Source: Escherichia phage ECO95 1-6-1
Sequence record: OR845813.1
DNA: 1,595 nt
Direction: 5' to 3' (one strand)
Under the pieces are notes generated by a model. It had not been told where the DNA came from. It ran no database searches and was given only the letters and a program-made list of their open reading frames with translations. Each line of letters begins with the position of its first letter. Within the stretch, counting starts at the first letter, position 1. Shown one piece after another: positions 1 to 1,595 of this stretch. Made by a program: the position numbers and the translations under genes.

Positions 1-1426
1 CATCAACATTCATGGCACCGGCCACTTTCGTGGACTGCTGCCCGGCGATTTCGGTTTCTTCATTTCCTGTAATACTGGCCAGCCGGTTTCCTTTTACCGC
101 CTGGCTGAAGTCGCCAGCACTGACCTGCTGTATGGCTCCGGCCATCAGCGTGGCGGTACCCAGTACTGTGATTTTATCCGTGGCTTTCACCGTGGTTTCA
201 CGGCTGACCAGTTCGCGCCGTTCCGTGTCGGCTTTCACCGTCCGCGCCATCGATGTTTCACTGATGGTCTGATCCGTCTGGCGTACCCAGTCTCCTGCCT
301 GTGTCACGCGTTGCGATACTTCCGCGCGCTGCTGTTGCAGCTGTTCGCCGGGCTTAATGTCCGGCAGACTGGTGCCATCCGGCAGCGTCTGCCTGATAAA
401 GGGCTTGTCCGGTCTGCCGCCCGTAAACGCCACTTCTACCAGCGTTCCTTCCGGTGGAAACTGGAACATTCCCGAATCGTTACCGGCCATTGGCACCGGC
501 AGCGGTACGGCGGAATATACCGGCGTCTGGTTGTCCGGGTTGCCGTCCGCGTCAAGCAGCTGCACGTCAACAGCGTACCGTGGCCGGAACGGGTCGGCAA
601 AATTACCGCTTTTTACGGCCTCGCTTGGTGCCACTACCCTGGCCAGTTTGGGCAGGTGAAGACCTGAAGCCAGTTCCGGGTAATGGCTTTCTATCTGACG
701 CTGCGCCGGTGTTTTCTGTAATGGCTGACCTGTGGCGCGGTTCCGTGGTGTCCACGTGATGGTCATTGTGTCATTCGTCAGATGAACTTTGGTCACGCGT
801 TCCCCGTTCACGTCCACGCCCGGACGAAGACTCTGGATCACCGGCAATGTCATGGAATTACCGCCCGCCGTTCCCTGGCTGAACTCTGCCGGGATTTCTA
901 CCGGACGTCCGGCAAACAGCGCCTTTTCTGCGCCGCCGACATACAGCGAACCATCCGGCAATGGATACCAGATGTAATCCGTGATACTGAATGCCCTGCC
1001 CAGATTATTCAGCAGCTGGTATCCCGTCCCGTTATGGGTGAAATGGGGGATCGGTTTATCACTGTACGGCACATCCGGTACCGCAATGCTGATCCCGCTG
1101 TTTTCCTCCAGCCATCCGGCCACATCGCGCAGTGTTGGATGCTGGAATGAGCATGGCCACATCCGCTCAAATACGCCAGCCAGCTCGCGGACGAACAGAC
1201 GCTGATAACCGTTTTCGGCAGGCTGTGAGCGCTCCACATAGCCGGTAAACCAGCGCAGAAGTAAACCGGAATACCCCACATCCAGCCGTACCAGTTTGCC
1301 GGTGTAGTCTGTGGTCGTCTGTGCCGTAATAAAGCCACGTCCACAGCTGTTCAGCTCCAGCACCAGACTGGCGTCAGCCAGGTGTATTTCATCCGTTGAA
1401 AGGTAAAGGCGTTTTACTGGTTTCAT
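1..1426 (-). CDS. Large structural protein, partial (C-terminus beyond the left edge of the window); putative phage/prophage tail or baseplate hub/spike-type protein with a C-terminal gp5-like octapeptide beta-helix repeat region. Alternative in-frame start at 1429 (Met-Met).
   Basis: Manual reverse-complement translation from ATG at 1426..1424 gives 475 consecutive sense codons to position 2 with no stop: MKPVKRLYLSTDEIHLADASLVLELNSCGRGFITAQTTTDYTGKLVRLDVGYSGLL ... TDKITVLGTATLMAGAIQQVSAGDFSQAVKGNRLASITGNEETEIAGQQSTKVAGAMNVD. Codon choice is enterobacterial-like and GC3-rich (ctg, ccg, gcc, ggc, cag, acg frequent). AGGT lies 5 nt upstream of the 1426 ATG. The start overlaps the stop of the upstream gene (TAATG). 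Functional call rests only on the C-terminal repeat pattern and gene arrangement, not on a database match. Confidence 0.88.
   Translation of the reverse strand, partial: MKPVKRLYLSTDEIHLADASLVLELNSCGRGFITAQTTTDYTGKLVRLDVGYSGLLLRWFTGYVERSQPAENGYQRLFVRELAGVFERMWPCSFQHPTLRDVAGWLEENSGISIAVPDVPYSDKPIPHFTHNGTGYQLLNNLGRAFSITDYIWYPLPDGSLYVGGAEKALFAGRPVEIPAEFSQGTAGGNSMTLPVIQSLRPGVDVNGERVTKVHLTNDTMTITWTPRNRATGQPLQKTPAQRQIESHYPELASGLHLPKLARVVAPSEAVKSGNFADPFRPRYAVDVQLLDADGNPDNQTPVYSAVPLPVPMAGNDSGMFQFPPEGTLVEVAFTGGRPDKPFIRQTLPDGTSLPDIKPGEQLQQQRAEVSQRVTQAGDWVRQTDQTISETSMARTVKADTERRELVSRETTVKATDKITVLGTATLMAGAIQQVSAGDFSQAVKGNRLASITGNEETEIAGQQSTKVAGAMNVD
2..145 (-). other. Coding region for six tandem octapeptide units (hydrophobic-x-Gly-x5), putative beta-helix segment at the C-terminal side of the large CDS; truncated by the window edge.
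   Basis: Translation of 145..2 on the minus strand parses cleanly into MAGAIQQV / SAGDFSQA / VKGNRLAS / ITGNEETE / IAGQQSTK / VAGAMNVD. Gly is at position 3 in 6 of 6 units and position 1 is V/I/M in 5 of 6. Resembles the VxGxxxxx repeat of T4 gp5-type and VgrG-type beta-helices (established knowledge). Assignment is by pattern only. Confidence 0.45.
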
Positions 1427-1428
1427 CA

Positions 1429-1595
1429 TTAACCTAAAGCATCATTGACGGGCTTCAGTACCTTGCGTTCAAACCACGTCAGTTTTTTTTCATCCTCTCC
1501 GGCACTCTGGCCACCGGATTGTCCCGTACTGCTGGCCGTCTGTTTTTTTGCCGTTGTTTTACCGGTTGCCCTGGCTTCCCGCTTCTCCTGTACGC
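1429..1595 (-). CDS. 3' end (last 54 codons plus stop) of an upstream co-directional gene, partial; hypothetical protein with a low-complexity Lys/Thr/Ala/Gln/Ser/Gly-rich C-terminal region; possibly a tail assembly or tape-measure-type protein (speculative).
   Basis: Minus-strand frame with first full codon at 1593..1591 reads VQEKREARATGKTTAKKQTASSTGQSGGQSAGEDEKKLTWFERKVLKPVNDALG then TAA at 1431..1429, open to the window edge. The stop overlaps the downstream ATG at 1429..1427 by one base, typical of translationally coupled operon genes. Only 54 residues are visible, so product identity is not determinable. Confidence 0.6.
   Translation of the reverse strand, partial: VQEKREARATGKTTAKKQTASSTGQSGGQSAGEDEKKLTWFERKVLKPVNDALG
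1432..1435 (-). promoter_or_regulatory. Weak Shine-Dalgarno-like element (AGGT) for the downstream CDS, embedded in the last codons of the upstream gene.
   Basis: Minus-strand sequence gct tta GGT TAA TG ATG: AGGT ends 5 nt before the ATG at 1426 and 2 nt before the ATG at 1429. The spacing favours 1426 as the initiation codon. Partial match to the SD consensus only. Confidence 0.3.

Follow-up and report, generated by a model that had tools for sequence, protein, structure and literature searches.

The window, by which we mean the whole stretch of 1,595 nucleotides analysed here, carries parts of two genes that run in the same direction and are joined by a TAATG stop/start overlap, as the preliminary description had proposed; both lie on the minus strand (Table 1). 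Six-frame translation was used to recover both genes, since they run off the ends of the window and its ORF listing consequently held only spurious internal ORFs. Within the overlap, the TAA stop of the upstream gene occupies 1429-1431 and the ATG start of the downstream gene 1427-1429, with a second in-frame ATG immediately after that start. We refer to the genes by the names of their orthologues in phage HP1, orf34 (upstream) and orf35 (downstream); the two abut in the same way in ESSI2_ev015, an E. coli prophage, Yersinia, Vibrio and HP1, and the overlap suggests that their translation is coupled. An Rfam scan of either strand of the window gave zero matches, promoter-like sites and meaningful repeats were found on neither strand, and terminator-like sites did not exceed the chance level.

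Table 1. Features of the window, with positions counted from its first nucleotide
Feature	Position	Strand	Basis
TAATG stop/start overlap of orf34 and orf35	1427..1431	-	Direct sequence reading; gene abutment repeated in relatives
orf34 residues 128-163, K/T/A/Q/S/G-rich flexible linker	1486..1593	-	Composition, AlphaFold pLDDT, variability
orf34 residues 164-181, conserved C-terminal helix KLTWFERKVLKPVNDALG	1432..1485	-	Conservation and predicted helix
orf35 residues 1-228, hub module with gp27 / Mu gp44 / P2 gpD fold	746..1429	-	Predicted structure
orf35 residues 229-243, hub-spike fusion linker	701..745	-	Homologue limits, pLDDT dip
orf35 residues 244-385, spike N-terminal helices and putative gp5/VgrG/gpV-type OB-fold	275..700	-	
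orf35 residues 386-476, first part of presumably trimeric gp5-like beta-helix	2..274	-	phmmer, Gp5_C, repeat

The upstream gene encodes 181 aa in full, its 5' part lying outside the window, and matches the Pfam family PF25759 (HP1_ORF34) over residues 6-181 (E 3e-54, 183.9 bits against a cut-off of 27), as do all 27 aligned homologues; a profile search against PDB sequences returned no match. Its structure, predicted from the 98%-identical protein P0272, is of moderate confidence (mean pLDDT 66.5, core 77-89) and consists of a beta-rich, tail-tube-like barrel with a C-terminal extension. The best matches of this predicted fold are baseplate "ripcord" and tube-initiator proteins, though the tube fold is common to tube, initiator, and ripcord proteins and does not fix the baseplate layer to which orf34 belongs. 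HP1 orf34 has been tentatively linked to gpU, in a paper that calls the link "uncertain" (PMC10612066); here, hhalign of orf34 against P2 gpU was not significant (E 0.23), and no family member matched PF06995 (Phage_P2_GpU). The low-complexity C-terminus noted earlier in this protein is real: K, T, A, Q, S, and G make up 78% of the first 36 orf34 residues encoded in the window, AlphaFold pLDDT falls below 50 at residues 129-165, and the linker sequence is gapped and variable between genera. The segment beyond it (KLTWFERKVLKPVNDALG) is non-repetitive and conserved, with a helix predicted at residues 167-180, and is kept in Salmonella, Escherichia, Yersinia, and Pseudomonas copies, while Vibrio L9-1 is without it. 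We infer that this C-terminal helix is the tip of an arm that docks on another baseplate component.

The downstream gene has 476 codons inside the window and 567 in full, and its product, of 61 kDa, matches phrog_2258 (PHROG 2258, "baseplate protein") over residues 2-567 (E 3.6e-281). Its predicted structure (pLDDT 91.8) contains a gp27/gp44-type fold in the N-terminal module. Hub family models in Pfam and NCBIfam (e.g., Phage_GPD) matched neither this module nor any of 44 diverse orf35-family members, and hhalign of orf35 was significant against neither P2 gpD (E 0.15) nor gpV (E 0.057), so that the hub assignment rests on predicted structure. The limits of the linker that follows are drawn by homologues, as hub-only proteins stop at about residue 228 and spike-only proteins begin at residues 242-250, with a local pLDDT dip between them. 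For the spike, Phage_base_V (OB-fold) fell 1 bit under its gathering score, Gp5_C passed (23.3 bits, cut-off 20.4), and residues 413-508 matched T4 gp5 in a phmmer search of the PDB (E 3e-8), which bears out the earlier suggestion of a large protein with a spike-type beta-helix. The helix shows an 8-residue period (ITVLG/LMAGA/VSAGD/AVKGN/SITGN/EIAGQ/KVAGA/DVGGT) and runs on to about residue 508, where it is followed by a helical HxH apex (H534-S-H536), both past the window edge. The HxH motif is kept in 33 of 37 family members, three members of the family match Pfam Apex (PF18946), and the apex, which is of the gpV type, probably binds a metal ion.

Nucleotide relatives place these genes in a prophage tail operon. 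A Salmonella phage/prophage contig (OR850886) is 100% identical to the window, and the ESSI2_ev phages (ESSI-2-like Peduoviridae) and E. coli prophages are ~84% identical to it and carry full P2-type virion modules. Capsid, terminase, portal, sheath, tube, tape-measure, wedge J/I, fibre, and integrase genes are all present in the relatives, which are complete prophages of the P2/HP1 type (Peduoviridae) and whose head, lysis, and regulatory genes are P2-type rather than Mu-type. The assignment to a phage tail morphogenesis module thus stands, whereas the idea that the pair follows a tape measure does not, as orf34-orf35 close the tail module after the fibre genes and a separate tape-measure gene (630-690 aa) lies seven genes upstream in every relative examined. 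In ESSI2_ev015, the E. coli prophage, Yersinia, Vibrio, HP1, and the Salmonella contigs, orf35 comes last in the module, directly behind the orf34 homologue. A profile search with the neighbouring orf33 found no detectable relative in Pfam or PDB. Given the gene structure, orthology, predicted folds, distribution of split and fused forms, and genomic context observed here, the window very probably forms the distal part of a tail operon belonging to an HP1-group (ESSI-2/Quadragintavirus-like) Peduoviridae prophage of Salmonella enterica, carrying the orf34 and orf35 (hub-spike) orthologues.

The closest known counterpart is HP1 itself, whose orf35 product (P51739, "baseplate protein") is 40% identical to ours end to end by BLASTP (E 2e-157), has the same layout of fused hub, putative OB domain, beta-helix, and HxH, and stands in an identical orf33-orf34-orf35 order at the end of the tail module; HP1 orf34 (P51738) gave its name to the Pfam family that includes our orf34. 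HP1 differs in host and genus, and the beta-helix of our orf35 is 34 residues longer. A 2023 paper states that the gpD and gpV homologues are fused in HP1 (PMC10612066). With the arrangement already on record for this type phage, the hub-spike fusion is ordinary and already known, not a new discovery; the preliminary description had held that such a fusion right behind a tape-measure-like gene would be uncommon. We know of no experimental structure or functional study of either orf34 or orf35.

Many relatives split hub and spike into two adjacent genes, including Pseudomonas phage phi3, where the two genes overlap, and a metagenomic contig (L009) in which their order is as in phi3. Among the best 150 cluster representatives, 12 clusters were fused, 59 spike-only, and 8 hub-only, and in a neighbour-joining tree of the spike module the fused forms fell in one clade with a single exception. 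This nesting of the fused phage clade among split forms suggests that the fusion arose independently of that in VgrG and extracellular contractile injection systems (eCIS). Foldseek against viral models (BFVD) recovered only hub-only proteins covering the orf35 N-terminal module, and therefore added nothing on fused phage analogues.

Other contractile systems differ in how they encode these parts. In P2 (gpD hub, gpV spike) and pyocin R2 (PA0628 hub, PA0616 spike), hub and spike are encoded separately, in two different operons (in P2, V heads the V operon and D ends the F operon), in contrast to the single polypeptide here; the hub is ~228 aa here against 387 aa in P2 gpD, sequence similarity of P2 gpD, gpV, and gpU to orf34 or orf35 was undetectable by HMMER or hhalign, and no gpX/LysM homologue was identified here in the comparison with P2. 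As tube-initiator or ripcord comparators of orf34 we consider P2 gpU, pyocin R2 PA0626, Pa193 gp38/39, and Pam3 gp17. The Mu hub gp44 and spike gp45 (1wru, 9ki1) and the MuSo2 43 kDa tail protein (3cdd) share only 16-18% identity with orf35, and Mu hub and spike are separate genes in a genome of the transposable-phage type. We discounted Vibrio phage XM1 as a possible solved relative, since its hub and spike are separate and outside the orf35 family. The minimal baseplate of cyanophage Pam3 comes close in size, with a hub (gp19) of only 229 aa (PMC9942802) and a 182-aa tube initiator (gp17) against the 181 aa of orf34, but its hub and spike (gp20) are separate and its proteins have no detectable sequence similarity to orf34 or orf35. 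The Pam3 initiator is a barrel with an outward C-terminal helical arm (PMC9942802); the arm of orf34, unlike it, is a long tether of low complexity with a single helix at its end. Single-chain hub-spikes like orf35 occur in T6SS VgrG and in eCIS spikes (Afp8, Pvc8, AlgoCIS, Streptomyces CIS), which gave the longest structural alignments to orf35 (up to 394 residues), although orf35 belongs to none of these families by sequence, is phage-encoded, has a smaller hub module, and lies in no effector-loading context.

To our knowledge, no HP1-group virion has a solved baseplate, and we infer the oligomeric states, baseplate positions, metal binding, and tether role in the following model. A single orf35 chain would serve as both hub and spike, its N-terminal ~228 residues adopting the gp27/Mu gp44/P2 gpD hub fold. 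Solved baseplates suggest, by analogy, that the adaptor from 6- to 3-fold symmetry beneath the tail tube would be made of three copies, and the remainder of each chain would supply a puncturing device of the P2 gpV/Mu gp45/T4 gp5 type, with its OB domain, triple beta-helix, and HxH apex. Since hub and spike are both trimers, the fusion would keep their 3:3 stoichiometry and hard-wire the complex, as in VgrG, Afp8, and Pvc8. [quoted passage not shown] Sheath contraction would then drive the tube, the orf34 ring, and the orf35 trimer through the outer membrane.

How intact the prophage behind this particular copy is must be weighed, as the genes could be as described and yet derive from a defective prophage remnant or tailocin-like element, their proteins being relics or put to use apart from any complete phage. 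Of 24 Salmonella contigs read for the same protein, at least 22 carry orf33-35 behind a lysogeny module and rearranged pieces of terminase/portal and fibre-assembly genes, with capsid, sheath, and wedge genes absent, and the sole 100% match to the window, a contig of 7.8 kb with low coverage, bears the flag "UNVERIFIED_ORG". Near-identical copies (99.2%) sit in such degraded remnants, so that the window copy may play no part in a functional virion through lack of expression there. However, 13 positions separate the remnant from the window, the genes immediately upstream in the 100%-identical contig (L001) still include wedge J and I, fibre H, and assembly G, and the complete E. coli prophage lacks none of the virion genes. 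ESSI-2-type relatives, moreover, have been recovered from viromes and isolated as infectious phages (PMC6969025), and no tailocin-like locus, with sheath and tube kept and head genes missing, was found among the relatives. We therefore consider an origin in a defective element unlikely.

A related thought concerns the remnants themselves. Many Salmonella genomes hold a degraded prophage without head, sheath, tube, or wedge genes in which orf33-orf34-orf35 is intact, the remnant locus lying next to fljBA, and the differences between the remnant orf33-orf35 and the full copy are mostly synonymous. That this hub/spike module persists because it has a role of its own, either provided in trans to a P2-type prophage in the same cell or as an exapted free spike complex, nevertheless strikes us as quite improbable. 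A lesser conjecture is that orf33 might represent a novel type of core protein of the baseplate.

Returning to the reading of the pair as phage hub-spike and tube-like baseplate genes, two further alternatives have very little chance of being correct. First, orf35 could come from an island for secretion or injection, as a T6SS VgrG or an eCIS spike of the Afp8/Pvc8 type, and a T6SS-associated island had indeed been raised at the outset. The NCBIfam VgrG models TIGR01646 and TIGR03361 scored only 16.8 and 14.6 bits on orf35 against cut-offs of 121.8 and 186.35, its hub module is far below the VgrG gp27 region in length, and T6SS or eCIS genes were found in none of the contexts examined, all of which were P2/HP1-type prophages. 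Second, orf34 could be a DNA-binding or nucleoid-associated protein with no part in the virion, as its lysine/alanine-rich, histone-H1-like tail and the annotations of its orthologues might suggest ("DNA-binding protein" in Vibrio L9-1, "nucleoid DNA-binding protein" in phi3, and "adenine glycosylase" in vB_YenM_324). Yet no DNA-binding family in Pfam or NCBIfam matched orf34, its core fold is tail-tube-like, the Vibrio L9-1 protein does without the low-complexity tail, and every genome has the gene in one invariable place, with fibre-assembly/orf33 on one side and the hub-spike gene on the other, and with overlapping stop and start codons. The proposal that the upstream gene encodes a tape-measure or assembly protein followed by a hub or tip protein, as in Mu-like myoviruses, is refuted by gene order and family assignment, despite the K/A/T/Q-rich tail of orf34 and the resemblance of the orf35 hub fold to Mu gp44, as a tape measure was taken to exceed 500 aa, be mostly helical, and sit downstream of the chaperone genes and ahead of the baseplate genes, and orf34 is a short HP1_ORF34 protein with a beta-rich core.

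The practical value of these assignments lies in improved annotation. Names can be given to thousands of enterobacterial prophage genes that at present carry the labels "hypothetical protein", "DNA-binding protein", or "adenine glycosylase": orf35 becomes a baseplate hub-spike fusion, and orf34 a ring or ripcord-type protein of the baseplate with a tube-like fold. The present understanding of contractile injection systems is unchanged. Since the HP1 group would need only very few, compact proteins for the centre of its contractile baseplate, hub and spike being a single chain, it may serve as a convenient minimal model in structural work, and its fusion is useful for comparison with VgrG, in which the same fusion appears to have arisen separately.

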